This document shows positions 5,834-13,648 of a DNA stretch of 64,000 bases, in pieces; the stretch's first letter is position 1; each line of letters opens with the position of its first letter. The stretch covers positions 3,808,001-3,872,000 of the forward strand of contig OY761158.1 of assembly GCA_963664405.1 (NCBI GenBank), in the 5' to 3' direction. The notes under the pieces are model-generated. The model ran no database searches and was not told the origin of the DNA. It saw nothing but the letters and a program-made list of their open reading frames with translations. Origin of the DNA: Thermoanaerobaculia bacterium (GTDB lineage Bacteria; Acidobacteriota; Thermoanaerobaculia; Multivoradales; Multivoraceae). The position numbers and the translations under genes are program-made.

Positions 5834-6089
5834 ATGAGTTCGAAGCGACGGCGATTCGATCGAGAGTTCAAGACTCAGGCAGTTCGTCTGGCGAGCGAAG
5901 AGGGGCAGAGCGGAGCTGCTTCGTCGCTGGAAGAGGGTCTTCGCCGAGGAAGGAGCGCGTGCGTTTCCGGGCGAGGGGCGCGCTCGTGACGAGGACATGG
6001 CTCGCCTGCGTCGAGACCTTCGTCGGGTGACAGAAGAGCTCGACATTCTAAAAAAAGCGGTGGCGATCTTCTCGGAGCGCCGGCGATGA
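5834..6089 (+). pseudogene. IS3 orfA, with internal deletion/frameshift
   Basis: AGGAGG RBS, then MSSKRRRFDREFKTQAVRLASEEGQS; shifts frame into LLRRWKR...AFPGEG...EELDILKKAVAIFS. Confidence 0.8.
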
Positions 6090-6676
6090 AGTTCCGGTTC
6101 ATTCATGAGCACGTCCAGGAGTTCTCGGTGCGCGTGATGTGTCGGGTCCTTGCCGTGTCGCGAAGCGGCTACTACGCCTGGTGTTCTCGCCCTGAGAGCA
6201 CCCGGAGCCGGGAGGATCGCCGTCTGCTTGCCAAGATCCGTGCTTTCCACCATCGAAGCCGTGGCAGCTACGGTTCGTCGAGGATTCATGCCGATCTGCG
6301 CGAGGATGGAGAGAGCTGCGGTCGGCACCGTGTAGCTCGGCTGATGCGCGACGATGGGCTCGCCGGCAAGAAAGCCCGGCGGTTCAAGACGACAACGGAC
6401 TCGGAGAATTCGGATCCGGTTGCCCCGAACCTGTTGGCGCAAGACTTCTTCGTTGCGACCCCCGACACCGTTTGGGCGGGCGATATCACCTATCTGCGAA
6501 CCCGCGAAGGATGGCTCTATCTGGCGGTGTTGCTGGATCTGTACTCGCGCTTCGTTGTGGGTTGGTCGCTGTCATCGAGCTTGGATCGTTCGCTCCCCCT
6601 TGAAGCACTCGAGAACGCTGTTCGCCGGCGTCGACCCGGCCGAGGTCTCCTGCATCACTCGGATCGCGGGAGTCAA
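6086..6676 (+). pseudogene. IS3-A orfB, part 1
   Basis: MCRVLAVSRSGYY, YGSSRI, WAGDITY, LDLYSRFVVGW; ends at HHSDRGSQ. Confidence 0.9.
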
Positions 6677-6677
6677 A

Positions 6678-6755
6678 CTTGGGTTCAAGGGGTCGTCGCA
6701 ACGTTGCCTTGGTGAGCAGAGTGTACAAACTCATCGAAGACTTCGGCAGGGGTTC
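6678..6755 (-). mobile_element. Terminal ~78 bp of an IS30-family element
   Basis: Near-identical to 7170-7247, including the IR cttgggttcaag.gtcgtcgca. Confidence 0.85.
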
Positions 6756-7169
6756 TGAGCGGTCACGGTTTCGTGGACACCAAGTTAAGCCCCATCGGGG
6801 CAGTTCCTATTCTGCATCAGTTCGGGTAGTCAGCTTCGGACGAGGCTGTGCGAGGTTCGGGGAGCGCAGCCTCCCTTCGGATCCGACCGCCGGTCGCGCG
6901 TGAGTTCACGCTGCCCCTTCGAAGGCCTCGGGGCTCAGGAATCCGAGCGTCGAATGCTGGCGTCTCAGGTTGTAGAACACTTCGAGGTAAGAAACCGCTT
7001 CGTCGTGAGCTCGCTGACGAGTCTCGAAGGGTCGGTCCCAGACCTCGGTCTTGAGACTGTCGAAGAAGCTCTCCAAGACCGCATTGTCATAACAATTTCC
7101 GACGCCGGACATGCTGCAGCGAAACCGCAGCTCAGCCAGCCGATCCTGGTAAGCCTTCGAGGCGTACTG
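6756..7169 (-). mobile_element. 3' part of a second IS3 element (IS3-B), inverted
   Basis: IR TGAGCGGTCACGGTTTCGTGGACACC at 6756. orfB tail QYASKAY...GNCYDNAVLESFFDSLKTE...FYNLRRQHSTLGFLSP, stop at 6906. Confidence 0.85.
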
Positions 7170-8621
7170 CTTGGGTTCAAGGAGTCGTCGCAGCGTTGCC
7201 TTGGTGAGCAGAGTGTACAAGCTCATCGAAGACTTCGGCAGGGGTTCTCCAGCCGAGGGTCTTGCGGGGTCGGCCGTTGAGTGCGAGCGCGACCGCGGCG
7301 AGGTCGTCGCAGGAGTATCTGACAAGGTCGGTGCCCTTCGGGAAGTACTGGCGTAGTAGTCCGTTGGTGTTCTCGTTGGTGCCCCGCTGCCAGGGGCTGT
7401 GCGGGTCGCAGAAGTAGATCGCGAGGCCGGTATCGACGCGGAGTTGAGCGTGTTGAGCCATCTCGGCGCCCTGGTCCCAGGTCAAGGACCGGCGGAGCTG
7501 CTCGGGCAGCGTGGTGATTGACACCGCGATCGCGTCACGGACGGCTTCGGCGCCGTGCCCGGCGAGGGCCGGCCCGTTCTTCACCCTCGATTCGGTCCCG
7601 TGCCCTTCCATGCGGGGCAGGTGCAGCAGCATCGTGAACCGCGTAGTGCGTTCGACGAGGGTCCCGATCGCTGAGCTCTCGAGCCCGACGATCAGGTCGC
7701 CTTCCCAGTGACCCGGCACGGCCCTGTCGCCGGCTTCGGCGGGGCGTTCGCTGATCATGATCTCCGGAGTTACAAATTTCTTGCCTCTCCCCCGGGTTCG
7801 CGCATGCGGCACTCGTAGCGCTCGCCCGGTTCGCAGGCACGCGACGAGCTCGCGTTTGAGGGCTCCTCGACCTTGGATGTAGAGCGCTTGGTAGATCGCC
7901 TCGTGAGAGATCCGCATCGACTCATTATGGGGGAAATCAATCCGAAGCCGGTTCGAGATCTGCTCCGGACTCCAGGATTTCGCCCAACGCCGATCCTGGC
8001 GACGGCCGTGCCGACGGCCGATCCAACGCACATCCGGACCCGGCACCAGCTCCCCGTCAGGCCTTGCGATCACGCCGGCGAGGCGGTTCTGCACGTACTC
8101 ACGCAAGGCATCGTTCGCGGCAAGCTTGGAGACCTTCGGACGGCTGGCGCGCCGCTCCGCGTGCCACTGCGCAGTCGTGGCCCGATAAGTTACGGCACGG
8201 CTGCGAGTCGCCGCGTTGCGGCGCAGCTCCCGCGAAATCGTCGACGGTGAACGACCCAGGCGGCGAGCGATCTCACGTACCCCAACATGCTGAGCGTGAA
8301 GGATGGCGATCTCTTCACGCTCGGCGAACGACAGATAACGCCCCGACACCGGAGCCAACGAGATAGGTCGCATTCCACCAGCTTGCCTGAACCATCTCGA
8401 CCCGACAGCCGGCGACACCCCAGCCTCTGTTGCGGCGTCCTCGCTGGACGCCCCACGAGCGATCGTCTCCCAGAACCGGATCCGGTCCTCGCGCCGCGCT
8501 GTCGAGGGCCGGCCAGGTGACCGCATCTGGCCACGCATCGCTCGAATCGCACCCTGACACTTGCCAACTCCCATCGAAACACCTCCATCACGAGATGTTG
8601 CGACGACCAGTTGAATCCGCC
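7170..8621 (-). mobile_element. IS30-family insertion sequence
   Basis: IRs cttgggttcaaggagtcgtcgcagc / ggcggattcaactggtcgtcgcaac; single intact transposase. Confidence 0.9.
7177..8574 (-). CDS. IS30-family transposase
   Basis: RSPSTISRELRRN, WSPEQIS, ISHEAIYQ, PGHWEGDL, TWDQGAEM, PWQRGTNENTNGLLRQYFPKG. The true start is probably slightly downstream (MRGQMRSPG). Confidence 0.95.
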   Translation of the reverse strand: MGVGKCQGAIRAMRGQMRSPGRPSTARREDRIRFWETIARGASSEDAATEAGVSPAVGSRWFRQAGGMRPISLAPVSGRYLSFAEREEIAILHAQHVGVREIARRLGRSPSTISRELRRNAATRSRAVTYRATTAQWHAERRASRPKVSKLAANDALREYVQNRLAGVIARPDGELVPGPDVRWIGRRHGRRQDRRWAKSWSPEQISNRLRIDFPHNESMRISHEAIYQALYIQGRGALKRELVACLRTGRALRVPHARTRGRGKKFVTPEIMISERPAEAGDRAVPGHWEGDLIVGLESSAIGTLVERTTRFTMLLHLPRMEGHGTESRVKNGPALAGHGAEAVRDAIAVSITTLPEQLRRSLTWDQGAEMAQHAQLRVDTGLAIYFCDPHSPWQRGTNENTNGLLRQYFPKGTDLVRYSCDDLAAVALALNGRPRKTLGWRTPAEVFDELVHSAHQGNAATTP

Positions 8622-8821
8622 CAATACACTTGCGAGGACTACCGGGATCGTCTGGCCGAGCTCGGCATGACCGCGAGCATGAGCCGCAAAGGCAACTGCT
8701 TTGACAACGCGGTCGTCGAAAGCTTCTTCGATTCGCTCAAGACCGAGATCGACCAGCAGGTGTTCGAAAGTCGCGAGCAAGCGCGCCAAAGGGTGTTTGA
8801 CTACATCGAGATTTTCTACAA
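8622..8821 (+). pseudogene. IS3-A orfB, part 2
   Basis: QYTCEDYRDRL...SMSRKGNCFDNAVVESFFDSLKTE...DYIEIFY resumes exactly where part 1 stopped. Confidence 0.9.
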
Positions 8822-8846
8822 GTGGGATTCACAATGCTTCACCTCA

Positions 8847-10937
8847 CTATGTGCTTGATATGTGGAGAGTTAGCTGATCGACATCACGTCCTGCGGGGTC
8901 AGTTCGGCTTCCGAGGCCCTCTCGAAACCGCCGCTGGAGGGTCGGATTGTCCAGGTCGCTGCAGTTAAAGACCCATGGACCGTCCTTGAGCGGGTGTTTC
9001 GCCGGTACATCGCCCCGCTCGGCAGCCCGTCGTAGCGTCTTCGCGGCGACACCGAGATGGGCTGCCGCGGCGGTCAGATTCATCCATCCTTCGGCCTGGC
9101 GTATCGCGGACGAGTACACCGGTATGCCACGGTTGTTGCGCAAGGAGGTCACGGCCAGGGCAGACCATCGATTCCCGCGTGCGGTGAGAAGGCCGTTGCG
9201 GGTGAGGTAGCCGGCGATCAAACGGTCCTTGCAGATGCGAGCCAGCTCGCGGATCGCATCGACCACGTCGGGACTCGTGTGCGATGCGCTCTGGCCCCTG
9301 CGGCGCCGTGGGATACGCAGCTCGCTGTGCAGCCCTCCCTTCCAATGAATGGCGAGGGTGACCTCACTCTGCACAGCGTCGATGTCGACGACAATCTCTT
9401 CGATCAAAGCTCGGAGGACGCGCTTCTTGAGACGCGGGTCCGTTTCCGGCGCATTCCACATCCGGTCGAGGTCGAGCTCGAGATCTGCCAAATCGAGGGG
9501 GTCCGGTGCCCTCGATTTCTCGCCCGAGGGTCCCTGCTCGAGCTTTCGCTCCAGCTCGCGTACCTTCTGCAAGGCCTCGTCCCAGCGCCGCTCCAACTCG
9601 CCCGCAACGAGACGATTATCGGGATCCATCGCGTCGTAGCGACGACGGGCCAGCTCCGCCGCGTAGTGGGCTGCTTCCAACTCCATGGACAGAGCTTGGA
9701 TCCGCTCCTGGCGTCGAAGTGCCTCTTGCGAAACCGCGAGCCTCGCAGCCTCGACCGCGCAGGGTCGCACCACCTTGAGAATCTCTTCCGCAACGGCTTG
9801 GTCCACCGACAGCCCGCCAAAGGAGATGCATTTCGGAGCCATCTGGTCGAGTCGGGCGCGATGGCACAGGTACCGAGGGACCGCGGCATTCTTACCCGAG
9901 TAACCAACCATCAACTTGCGACCGCAACGACCGCAACGCAAGAGTCCTGCAAGCAATGCAGCTCCCCGTTTCGGCGCCCCACGACGGCGAGCTGACTGGA
10001 ATTGAGCGACATTGTCATCGAGCATCTGTTGGACCTTCTGAAACCGATCCCACCCAATGTAGCCCTCGTGATGATCGGGGATCAACACCGTCCACTCGTC
10101 AAGGGGCTTGCGCACGACCCTTTTGCGCAGGGATCCATCGACGAGCTCGGTCTTGGACGTCGTACGGCCGTAGGCGTAGGCACCGGCGTAGGTCGGCTCT
10201 TTCAGGATGCCGATAACGGCGTGATAGGCCGGCCGCTTCCACCAGGTCTCCCAGCCCGCGACGCCGCGCCGTTTCGCGGGTAGATCCACACCGTTTTCGA
10301 GAAACCACAGCCCGGCCTGCCGAGCGGTCCCCAACTCGAAGAACTTCGTGAAGACTAGCTCGATGGCCTTCTGCACGCGAAGGTCAGGGTCCTTCTCCAG
10401 GCGTTGATCCGCGGTCTTCACGAAACCCACTGGGGCCTCGATCACCAACTCGCCGCGCTTGGCCTTGGCCCACCGAGCCTCCACCGAGCGTTGGCGCAGA
10501 AGATCCAGCTCGTACTCGCTCATCGTGCCTTTCAGACCCAGCAGCAATCGATCGTTCGCTCGACGAGGATCGTAGATCGTGTCGTGATCGATGAGCAACG
10601 TTTCGACCATGGCGCACATCTCGATCAACTGATGCCAGTCGCGGTTATTGCGTGCGAAACGGGACACCTCGATCGCCGCTACGGCACCGATCCGCCCTAG
10701 ACAAACCTCGGCCACCAAGCGCTGAAACCCGGTGCGACCGTGTGTCGATGTCGCGGAAAGCCCTTGATCCTCATCAATGACCTCGGTCTCTTGCCAGCCC
10801 AGGTCCCGTACGCGCTGCTCCATCGAGTACTGCAGACGCCGGCTCTCGGTGTTGTGCACTAGCTGGTGGTGCGACGACTGGCGCACATAGATCAGCGCCC
10901 GACGCTCGAGATGTCGAACCGTGAGCTTCTCACTCAT
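8847..10937 (-). CDS. Large serine recombinase (resolvase + recombinase + Zn ribbon + coiled coil + C-terminal HTH)
   Basis: ALIYVRQSS catalytic Ser, VIDEDQGLS, EVSRFARN, LLRCGRCGRK, HEGYI; AAGGAGGGG RBS. Confidence 0.95.
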   Translation of the reverse strand: MSEKLTVRHLERRALIYVRQSSHHQLVHNTESRRLQYSMEQRVRDLGWQETEVIDEDQGLSATSTHGRTGFQRLVAEVCLGRIGAVAAIEVSRFARNNRDWHQLIEMCAMVETLLIDHDTIYDPRRANDRLLLGLKGTMSEYELDLLRQRSVEARWAKAKRGELVIEAPVGFVKTADQRLEKDPDLRVQKAIELVFTKFFELGTARQAGLWFLENGVDLPAKRRGVAGWETWWKRPAYHAVIGILKEPTYAGAYAYGRTTSKTELVDGSLRKRVVRKPLDEWTVLIPDHHEGYIGWDRFQKVQQMLDDNVAQFQSARRRGAPKRGAALLAGLLRCGRCGRKLMVGYSGKNAAVPRYLCHRARLDQMAPKCISFGGLSVDQAVAEEILKVVRPCAVEAARLAVSQEALRRQERIQALSMELEAAHYAAELARRRYDAMDPDNRLVAGELERRWDEALQKVRELERKLEQGPSGEKSRAPDPLDLADLELDLDRMWNAPETDPRLKKRVLRALIEEIVVDIDAVQSEVTLAIHWKGGLHSELRIPRRRRGQSASHTSPDVVDAIRELARICKDRLIAGYLTRNGLLTARGNRWSALAVTSLRNNRGIPVYSSAIRQAEGWMNLTAAAAHLGVAAKTLRRAAERGDVPAKHPLKDGPWVFNCSDLDNPTLQRRFREGLGSRTDPAGRDVDQLTLHISST

Positions 10938-11118
10938 GCTTCCCCTCCTTTGCGAGGCTCGGCGATGACGGTGGGCTCTGCTCTGTCAGGATCTGCGCCA
11001 GCAGAGAGATCACCGCTTCGCGAGTCGTCGCGGGCAGCTCTCGCCAGCTCGGCCGATCGGTCTCGGTCGCGAAGAGCTCGGCTTGGTAGGTAACCCGTTG
11101 GGCGCGTCGATGTCGCAT
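10930..11118 (-). CDS. Small hypothetical protein upstream of the recombinase
   Basis: 62 aa with Q.ELF...P.W.ELP...R..V..LLA.IL, a pattern I recall upstream of such recombinases; overlaps the 157-aa ORF in another frame. Confidence 0.5.
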   Translation of the reverse strand: MRHRRAQRVTYQAELFATETDRPSWRELPATTREAVISLLAQILTEQSPPSSPSLAKEGKHE

Positions 11119-11407
11119 CGTTTCCCTCCGTAGTCGGTGGAAGACGATTCTCTATCGCGCCCGGACCCTCCTGCTGACGGGTGTCTCTGAGTAATTGCCA
11201 ACAATCGACAAGCGCTTCCCAACGTACGTTGGGCGAAGTCGTTGCCTGCATCCGAGAGCACAGCTCCCGATCAAACATCCATTTGGGAATCTCGAGCTTC
11301 GCGCGCGTCTCGTCATCGTTGACTTGACATCGATAGACCCCGCCGCCCTTCTTCTTGCCGTGGACAACGACTTCCTGCCCGTATTGCGGGTGCCAGCGGT
11401 ACTGCAC
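10934..11407 (-). CDS. Y4bD/Y4pK-like accessory protein; its N-terminus appears to be supplied only after excision
   Basis: YRWHP.YG..V and EIPKWMFD...C motifs; the stop overlaps the recombinase start (ATGA). Confidence 0.6.
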   Translation of the reverse strand: MQYRWHPQYGQEVVVHGKKKGGGVYRCQVNDDETRAKLEIPKWMFDRELCSRMQATTSPNVRWEALVDCWQLLRDTRQQEGPGAIENRLPPTTEGNDATSTRPTGYLPSRALRDRDRSAELARAARDDSRSGDLSAGADPDRAEPTVIAEPRKGGEA

Positions 11408-11448
11408 CCGACGAATCTCGGTCCTGTGATCACTGTGATCGGGACTTG

Positions 11449-11529
11449 TACAATCGGTCCCGGCGCCATTCGACGTTGGGATATGTCAGCCCCGCGACCT
11501 TCGAGCAGCAGCTCCAGGAGGCCGCGTGA
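11449..11529 (+). pseudogene. IS3-A orfB, part 3
   Basis: YNRSRRHSTLGYVSPATFEQQLQEAA-stop. Confidence 0.9.
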
Positions 11530-11876
11530 GAATGAGGGACCAGCTCCCTCGCCGGCTATCGCCGGCTCACTACGCTGGTCCCTCCTCTACTTTTCTGCCA
11601 CCATGGGTGGCTAAACCAGGTGTCCATCAAACCCGGGCAGGTCCACTGTCTACTCTGGGTGATGTATCGGCCGATGAGACTGGTCGCCACTGTCCCCAAG
11701 ACTGTCCCTGAGAGGGGAGAGACAGCCCGAAATCTCGTAATCCTCGTAACGGGTCTAAGCCCTCTATTCAATACCAGATCCACGCAAACCCCTTTGCTTG
11801 CAGGGCGAGCGGATTTGTCCCTGTGCCGAAGTGGCGCGTCTCTCCCGAAGTGGGTGGTACCTATTCGGGGGGGTAC

Positions 11877-13648
<1,772 letters not shown>

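Follow-up and report, generated by a model that had tools for sequence, protein, structure and literature searches.

We describe here a small element located at positions 8817-11450 of a 64,000-nucleotide stretch (the window) of the genome of Thermoanaerobaculia bacterium (Acidobacteriota; GenBank assembly GCA_963664405.1, contig OY761158.1, positions 3,808,001 to 3,872,000 of the forward strand). Very probably it is a minimal mobile element resembling an insertion sequence (IS), which was moved by its own large serine recombinase (LSR) into a conserved coding motif of a transposase gene. The inserted unit comprises 2,632 bp (11449-8817), that is, window positions 8817-11448 with one of the two TA dinucleotides, and interrupts the orfB of an IS3-type element between the codons for DYIEIFY and NRSRRHS. 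The left junction reads ...GATTTTC-TACAA-GTGGGATTCACA and the right one ...TGTGATCGGGACTTG-TACAA-TCGGTCC. The pentanucleotide TACAA, common to both, lies at 8817-8821 and at 11449-11453, and hence the unit measures 2,632 bp and the frame is regained on its removal: with one unit deleted, orfB reads D-Y-I-E-I-F-Y-N-R-S-R-R-H-S-T-L-G-Y..., up to a stop codon at 11527-11529. An earlier note on this DNA had claimed the unit, its place at this motif of orfB, the TACAA at both junctions and the frame-restoring excision, and all of them are seen in the sequence, so that the inserted unit and its boundaries are confirmed.

Joined to each other, the ends of the element give TGTGAtcgggACTTG TA CAAGTgggatTCACA, an imperfect palindrome around TA in which 10 of the 15 inner arm positions are complementary when counted on the window sequence, in agreement with the palindromic attP that the same note had reconstructed. 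The TA at 8817-8818 would be the crossover dinucleotide of the left junction (attL in the orientation of the window) and the TA at 11449-11450 that of the right junction (attR). One attP arm (CAAGTGGGATTCACA...) spans 8819-8846, between the core and the stop codon of the recombinase gene, and the other (...TGTGATCACTGTGATCGGGACTTG) occupies 11408-11448; both have conserved counterparts in relatives. The gene hit encodes an rve-type transposase (DDE, retroviral-integrase-like), with the rve core and the rve_2/rve_3 C-terminal region both detected by Pfam. We propose that the element would leave as a circle whose joined ends constitute an attP of ~46 bp, and that the LSR would join this attP with an attB consisting of the DNA that encodes Y-N-x-x-R-x-H near the C-terminus of rve-type transposases, cutting at the TA of the Tyr codon with no duplication of the target and with excision giving the frame back. 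Inspection by eye, with no scan run, revealed no convincing sigma-70-like promoter hexamers across the predicted circle junction.

The use of this motif as a landing site was seen repeatedly among relatives of the element. The comparison covered 160 relative loci, retrieved from genome contigs (L020-L099) and metagenome contigs (L100-L179), among which a close clade with a recombinase identity of at least 53% comprises 44 loci, 34 of them with a readable upstream flank. The strict motif [YFH][NLH]..[RHKG].H[SQLMHT], read at the junction on the strand opposite to the recombinase, was present upstream in 28 of the 34. One further locus, L022, carries it on the other side and in the opposite orientation (...FVEYY↓NNVRLHSAIGF, with ↓ marking the junction here and below), the target being on the recombinase strand. 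In all, 29 of the 34 readable junctions carry the Y/F-N/H-x-x-R-x-H motif of rve-type transposases, in 24 distinct target peptides, while three more (L119, L123 and L137) appeared by eye to be near-matches. As a control, the motif scan of 35 downstream flanks in their forward frames returned a single match, which is the true reversed case.

Several of these loci are informative on their own. The relative L020 is 81% identical in DNA over the whole element but lies between other flanks, and its restored attB, ...GEIFYTLKEVQVLTERWRWQY↓NRRRLHSALGY (...RWRWQY↓NRRRLHSALGY), belongs to a gene with rve and rve_3 matches in Pfam, which marks an independent insertion. The same holds for L100, with 85% recombinase identity, matching ends, different flanks and an attB whose N side reads Y↓NHVRPHQALGY. 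Further examples are ...LISYYLLYY↓HHDRTHLGLG in L023, the junctions on Rhizobium johnstonii 3841 pRL10 (...AEWTDDY↓NRFRPHSSLGY) and Acidiphilium cryptum JF-5 pACRY02 (...AAWRHDY↓NHHRPHSSLG), and the upstream junction of L025, which carries the YN motif although its recombinase is truncated by an IS66 element. In pRL10 and pACRY02 the elements are annotated only as a 'recombinase family protein' and a 65-amino-acid hypothetical protein. Unrelated flanks among close homologues, the outcome that the earlier note had named as evidence against its proposal, were thus looked for and not found. Its description of a conserved coding motif as landing pad held, but the restriction to IS3 did not, since the targets are rve-type transposases of several IS families, with peptides spanning the IS3-like YN..R.HS.LGY, the YH..R.H.SL..D.P and the YL.ER.HQG types. 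These comparisons support the first reading, that of an LSR element landing in a transposase motif, and widen it.

The comparison of both ends in relatives points to a fixed crossover. Among 19 distinct sites with both junctions called, the left and right dinucleotides agree in 17 (16 TA and one AA), the remaining two being anchor-offset errors of the calling script. In L023 and L104, TA alone is shared between the two junctions and, therefore, the crossover is fixed at TA. The single AA-core site, L113, has an F↓N target, and together with probably L116 and L129 it appears to form an AA-core sub-lineage with this target. The central 2-bp crossover and the absence of target-site duplication are those of the LSR family. 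Over the 19 sites the attP consensus is GAAGcA.TgTGAAaCgCA.TTG TA CAAc.CCC..ACACAaTaCCCA, with both arms conserved. Conservation of attB in DNA is confined to the half encoding N-x-x-R-x-H, with GTTG next to the core, then CG and then GTG; the Y-side half shows none. Because the N-x-x-R-x-H half is conserved at the DNA level, landing sites would be available wherever IS3-, IS481- or related ISs are present, plasmids included, and insertion there would be costless to the host. By eye, the attP arm also resembles the N-side half of attB with a shift of 3 nt, a likeness that may be due to chance.

The orientation of insertion provides an additional line of evidence. In the clade that targets IstB, with the non-palindromic cores GT/GG, all 101 of 101 IstB flank matches are antisense to the recombinase, and likewise the recombinase of a paralogous element in the same genome, with the non-palindromic core AA, is always antisense to its target. 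Palindromic cores occur in both orientations: 18 and 1 flank matches for TA (rve), 36 and 8 for GC (IS66 TnpC). Orientation would thus follow the symmetry of the core, as expected of a serine recombinase, and the 2-bp crossover without duplication, the palindromic attP and a polarity set by core symmetry would fit canonical serine-integrase recombination.

It could be argued that the enzyme is instead of relaxed specificity, like TnpX/TndX, inserting at many TA sites, and that selection spares only those insertions that fall in dispensable IS genes. Short target motifs are known for some LSR transposases, and the multi-targeting LSR clade described in Durrant 2022 (PMC10083194) includes TndX-like enzymes, with DUF4368 in 63% of its members. 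IS genes are indeed dispensable, and the poor conservation of the Y-side half of attB would suit such an enzyme. Survivorship, nevertheless, does not account for the same codon pair being hit in 24 distinct genes, with no scatter along IS genes or intergenic DNA, nor for the conserved bases of the N-side half-site (GTG, CG and GTTG next to TA). Moreover, DUF4368, which by the same account marks most of the multi-targeting clade, is absent from the LSR in the Pfam scan, and every sister clade has one motif of its own. We therefore regard relaxed specificity as very unlikely, and insertion directed to the transposase motif as the better explanation of these junctions.

In its own genome (6.78 Mb, one contig) the element is present as one full copy and one 285-bp right-end remnant of 95% identity. 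The remnant junction reads ...GGGACTTGTACAA followed by the codons (Y)NRRRRHSSIGYFSP, which is the same motif in a different IS3-type gene. Contigs of four public runs were placed on window positions 8400-11900 with min_likeness 90. In two of them 8816 is joined directly to 11449, omitting 2,632 bases, with the position of the joint ambiguous by 5 bases: X3 (one contig of depth 28.8, shorter side 23 nt) and X10 (one contig of depth 2.7, side 36 nt). This joint is the empty site, precisely where it was predicted, and on its own lends moderate support, given its short sides and the min_likeness of 90. Contig word depth in X3 was ~25-27 for the IS3 flanks and 4.9 for the element, values that serve only to show that flanks and element lie on different X3 contigs. 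Within the recombinase gene, at 10389-10622, contig word depth was 10- to 60-fold higher in all four runs, with loose ends at 10485 and 10517, probably because these words are shared by further LSRs of the family present in the samples.

Evidence for recent movement comes from relatives. A paralogue LSR of the same genome, 37% identical to that of the window, belongs to a 3,357-bp element of which there are five copies, 99.0-99.8% identical and with differing flanks (L015-L019, at G000:C1 near 2343368, 2707887, 3059796, 3327542 and 6340865). In addition, one metagenome-assembled genome (MAG) has an identical LSR at five loci, whose downstream flanks are of at least three kinds. Five near-identical copies in one case, and five identical LSRs with differing flanks in the other, are evidence that such elements have moved recently. 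Many contigs of 2.5-3.5 kb among the relatives resemble collapsed repeats. In 40 relatives of the genome no close copy of the window LSR was detected, the best identity being 40%.

Dissemination might also be passive, with one or a few ancient insertions carried along by the host ISs or spread by homologous recombination between ISs. Some observations would agree with it: in the related MAG L021 this IS3 is interrupted by the same insertion, at 98% DNA identity, so that L021 is not an independent case; seven Mesorhizobium loci are identical; and in two of the five paralogue copies of the own genome the left flank belongs to another gene than the right one, which points to recombination between copies. 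Passive carriage is, on the other hand, the least probable of the explanations weighed here, given that different IS families are cut at one codon (IS3/IS407-like ...DY↓N types versus HL..L..Y..YY↓H types) within unrelated flanking DNA, that L020, at the DNA identity given above, sits in a different gene, and that run X3 contains the host IS3 both empty and occupied. For the family as a whole, it also conflicts with the near identity of the five paralogue copies, which are found in four target types. Movement by the element's own LSR explains these observations better.

A number of points speak against the interpretation that we favour, or reduce the weight of its evidence. Two of the 34 junctions (L101 and L120) are without the motif. 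Many loci are near-copies of one another, as in the seven identical Mesorhizobium rows, and the counts therefore overstate independence. Despite the palindromic TA core, 28 of the 29 motif-bearing junctions are in one orientation (antisense), which is unexplained. The joints at the empty site are short (23 and 36 nt) and were accepted at 90% likeness, one side being below the 31-nt rule, and no circle (attP) joint was found in the contigs of the four runs, although rare forms are lost from contigs. The genome has a single copy of the element, and L021 shares its insertion at 98% identity; hence, the copy in the window may be old and inactive. As for the wider family, the loci themselves supplied the references for blastx, with the Pfam check applied to representatives only, and the phylogeny is a quick maximum-likelihood tree supported by the SH-like approximate likelihood ratio test (SH-aLRT) only.

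Within its 2,632 bp the element is small and carries mobility genes only, all on the minus strand in the order DUF5372-like open reading frame (ORF) 1, ORF2 and recombinase. The recombinase and small ORFs announced in the earlier note are thus present, with its 'one or two' small ORFs corrected to a total of three genes. The LSR (8847-10937, minus strand, 696 amino acids) has the Pfam domains Resolvase (PF00239, residues 14-163, 6.5e-20), Recombinase (PF07508, 189-309, 1.5e-16), Zn_ribbon_recom (PF13408, 328-386, 6e-07) and a C-terminal HTH_17 (5.9e-05), together with a weak coiled-coil-like (Tropomyosin) match at 401-468. Its ...YVRQSS... stands where the nucleophile motif is usually located. 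The enzyme lies far from characterised large serine recombinases, judging from its matches: the closest solved relative is SPbeta YokA/SprA (E 2e-09), and the match to the phiC31 integrase is marginal.

Affinities of this kind, with SprA and with XisF as the best NCBIfam match, could suggest that the insertion is a domesticated excision switch that turns the transposase gene on, as the sigK skin, the fdxN XisF element and SPbeta do for their respective genes, and the exact recovery of the orfB frame together with the single copy in the genome would be in keeping with this. The XisF score of 93.6 bits, however, is far under the family cut-off of 375, and a second break in the same orfB, caused by an IS30-family IS, means that excision would yield no working gene. 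Furthermore, insertion in 24 distinct target genes over many phyla and the occurrence of relatives in multiple copies are the behaviour of a mobile element. All this renders a switch highly improbable compared with an autonomous element that lands in transposase genes.

The two small genes may encode directionality or accessory DNA-binding factors, which is a guess. ORF2 (10930-11118, minus strand, 62 amino acids) overlaps the start of the recombinase gene and had no Pfam or NCBIfam family match. Both its position and its pattern are conserved, 25 of the 26 loci listed having ...LF...P.W..LP...v..LLAqlL at the equivalent position, and its counterpart is the 65-amino-acid hypothetical protein annotated in the two RefSeq plasmids. 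ORF1 (about 11141-11407, minus strand) corresponds to a conserved domain of ~85-100 amino acids, probably a divergent DUF5372, within an open frame that extends to 10934 (157 amino acids) and whose tail beyond the domain is not conserved. An alignment of 48 sequences gives the consensus V.YRWHPL.G...PaWM.D...C..M...P.V...AL..Lr.LL, with Y3, H6, W43 and L66 invariant. ORF1 of the window itself had no Pfam (PF17342 included) or NCBIfam match, whereas 20 of the 48 aligned homologues match PF17342 (DUF5372), with a best E of 4.7e-09, and a protein atlas groups ORF1 with DUF5372 clusters (score 0.93, 226 of 256 features common). The AlphaFold (AF2) model of ORF1, with a pLDDT (predicted local distance difference test) of 85.2, has three short strands ahead of its helices; compared with the PDB it gave no match at E<=0.001 and only weak SH3-like or Tudor-like rows. 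A protein search with the 157-amino-acid frame returned nothing at E<=0.001 within a length band of 86-275 amino acids, a result that says little because the conserved part is only ~85-100 amino acids long.

The host orfB lies on the plus strand in three pieces. Its 5' part (6086-6677, to ...HHSDRGSQ), as scanned over 6086-6715, matches rve (5.6e-18) and HTH_21 (2e-17) in Pfam. The middle part (8622-8818, YTCEDYRDRL...DYIEIFY) matches rve_2 (3.5e-08) and rve_3 (2.2e-06), both profile matches ending at the junction, at 34/56 and 51/67. The 3' end (11449-11529, (Y)NRSRRHSTLGYVSPATFEQQLQEAA and then the stop codon) is in frame with 8622-8818. Between the first two pieces, at 6678-8621 on the minus strand, is the unrelated second insertion, a 1,944-bp IS30-family IS (transposase 7177-8574, minus strand; Pfam HTH_38 and rve) that enters orfB at HSDRGSQ↓Y and is present in the genome in 13 full copies of 99.8-100% identity. 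This IS encloses the relic of an IS3-type orfB 3' end, at 6906-7170 on the minus strand, with the peptide EVFYNLRRQHS, and its own end of ~85 bp appears duplicated (6678-6760 versus 7170-7250). The second site that had been assigned to an 'IS3-B', gtgttctacaacctg, does exist at 6966-6980 on the minus strand, but as part of this relic within the IS30-family IS, not of a free IS3. None of the 13 full IS30-family copies is occupied, the element being limited in this genome to the one full copy and the remnant. No intact copy of the host IS3 was found in the same genome, only relics of 74% identity. An insertion nest is seen elsewhere in the genome, at G000:C1 6337979-6346671, where an IS30-family copy is split by ~6.7 kb around a copy of the paralogue LSR whose own flanks are IS21 IstA.

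The targets of the wider family extend beyond rve-type transposases. For this purpose, flanks were classed by tblastn/blastx against references from the own genome and the loci, with representatives checked in Pfam, which replaced a noisy naming by longest ORF. Flanks were readable in 148 of the 160 loci (12 had none), and 132 of these 148 abut a gene for rve, IstB, IS66 TnpC, IS66 TnpB or an LSR, the rest being three that abut IS4-like genes or genes of unknown kind and 13 unclassified; L025 is counted here under IS66, although its upstream junction is the YN motif. A clade of ~45-49% identity is always found in IstB_IS21, where it cuts the Walker A codons G-G/P-(P/T)↓G-x-G-K at about profile position 100/238. 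A second clade, of ~41-44% identity and mostly from rhizobia, is inserted in DDE_Tnp_IS66 at ...ERALRG(I/V)A↓.GRKN with the core GC, while L055 occupies a second TnpC site (LFAGSD↓), L059 has an IS66 TnpB target and L066 an IS4-like gene that lacks Pfam support. A small clade in the IS66-targeting group (L068, L072 and probably L075) is found, by its downstream flank, in a gene of unknown kind at ...TEALRDLA↓DN..., with no Pfam match, and the target in L068 and L072 may not be a transposase. In L062 (1864-6648), an element of the family lies inside the recombinase gene of another member, at NDRLLLGM(K)↓GTMSE, where Pfam confirms the target by a Resolvase match up to 116/145 and, after it, matches to Recombinase, Zn ribbon and HTH_17.

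As for the paralogue copies, they cut DDE transposase genes at the Asn/Lys codon just upstream of the catalytic glutamate (N/K-G-K-x-E-R), as in the IS481-like RPRT↓NGKAERF, another rve gene (SPWQ↓NPYAERVIG) and the IS21 IstA RGNE↓KGRVERAIRF; one left flank is IS3-type (MSRKGDCWD↓). A truncated third relative at G000:C1 4512216-4512991 retains ORF1 together with an LSR (45% identity) shortened to its first 108 amino acids. Upstream it borders on an IstB-like Walker A (..G↓PTGIGKSYLA), and its LSR is cut by what appears to be another transposase gene. Target labels are clustered on the LSR tree, with 19 changes against a shuffled mean of 38.9 and a value as low in 0 of 200 shuffles, and the rve clade that includes the window LSR has an SH-aLRT of 100. 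Relatives also occur in 462 plasmid records, 277 of them typed as conjugative.

It seems reasonable to suppose, with somewhat more in favour than against, that these elements would make up a large undescribed superfamily of 'transposase hunters' of 2.5-3.4 kb (DUF5372-like ORF, small ORF and LSR) that has been repeatedly re-aimed at motifs of mobile elements. Its targets would be the Y-N-x-x-R-x-H of rve, the N/K-G-K-x-E-R of DDE transposases, the Walker A of IstB, two sites in IS66 TnpC, IS66 TnpB and the NDRLLLG(M/L)K↓GTMSE of LSRs themselves, each clade, with the gene order ORF1, ORF2 and LSR, being directed to another conserved motif. If this superfamily were real, its members would be hyperparasites riding on ISs and plasmids and inactivating ISs upon insertion, and they would offer a natural series of matched LSR/attP/attB sets in which the evolution of serine-integrase specificity could be followed.

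Elements of this kind would explain the common 'recombinase family protein' genes located between the halves of transposase pseudogenes, as in pRL10 and pACRY02. They would be mobile elements living on others by aiming at codons that their victims cannot easily change, a logic shared with inteins and homing endonucleases, and such hunters may limit IS activity in IS-rich genomes. With enzymes 40-85% identical, a known attP and many natural attB variants, the family would also represent a natural experiment in the re-aiming of serine integrases, in which core dinucleotides vary by lineage (TA, AA, GC, GT and GG) and orientation follows, a feature that could be of direct use in genome engineering and in studies of integrase specificity. 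In turn, ORF1 would supply a genomic context for the orphan family DUF5372, no mention of which was found by a full-text search of the literature with ISfinder and subscription journals outside it; within the same bounds, no description was found of LSR elements homing into transposase genes, PMC12927932 proving unrelated. In the portion of the main text of Durrant 2022 that we consulted, the targets named are magnesium chelatase, prolyl isomerase and competence genes, and transposases are not among them.

Among known systems, the IS607 family shares the size of an IS, a serine recombinase and the lack of inverted-repeat transposase ends and of target duplication, according to the parts of PMC6188088 and PMC4058570 that we consulted. 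IS607 TnpA, however, is small, with an N-terminal DNA-binding domain and minimal specificity, whereas the enzyme described here is an LSR of 696 amino acids with Recombinase and zinc-ribbon domains and, as its targets suggest, high specificity.

A close likeness in terms of mobility is that to Tn4451/Tn4453 (TnpX) and Tn5397 (TndX) of clostridia, in which an LSR is the sole mobility enzyme. TnpX/TndX transposons pass through a circular form, with a 2-bp crossover without duplication and a target that resembles the joint of their ends. Tn4451 and Tn5397 nevertheless carry cargo such as resistance genes, insert at many loose sites and belong to a clade that mostly has DUF4368, while the element described here has no cargo and no DUF4368, contains a DUF5372-like ORF, and shares with its relatives one codon-precise target motif in transposase genes instead of many unrelated target genes. 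Repeated DNA as a landing site is also known from phiRv1 of Mycobacterium tuberculosis, an LSR element whose attB lies in the REP13E12 repeats, with several landing sites per genome; phiRv1, though, is prophage-like, of ~10 kb and restricted to one lineage, in contrast to the 2.6 kb, three genes, coding-motif target and re-aimed sister clades seen here. SPbeta SprA (YokA), the sigK skin SpoIVCA and the Anabaena fdxN XisF have the same enzyme class, domain order and frame-restoring excision, but each of their elements interrupts one host gene and is tied to development, unlike the many phyla and many target genes of the present family.

Finally, mobile elements serve as landing pads for Tn5053/Tn402 'res hunters', for IS1111-type elements in attC/REP and for group II introns in IS genes. 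These rely on DDE/DEDD transposases or on retrohoming and use non-coding or less motif-bound sites, whereas the present element and its relatives would direct an LSR to catalytic or structural codons of the victim's own transposase, much as inteins and homing endonucleases do.

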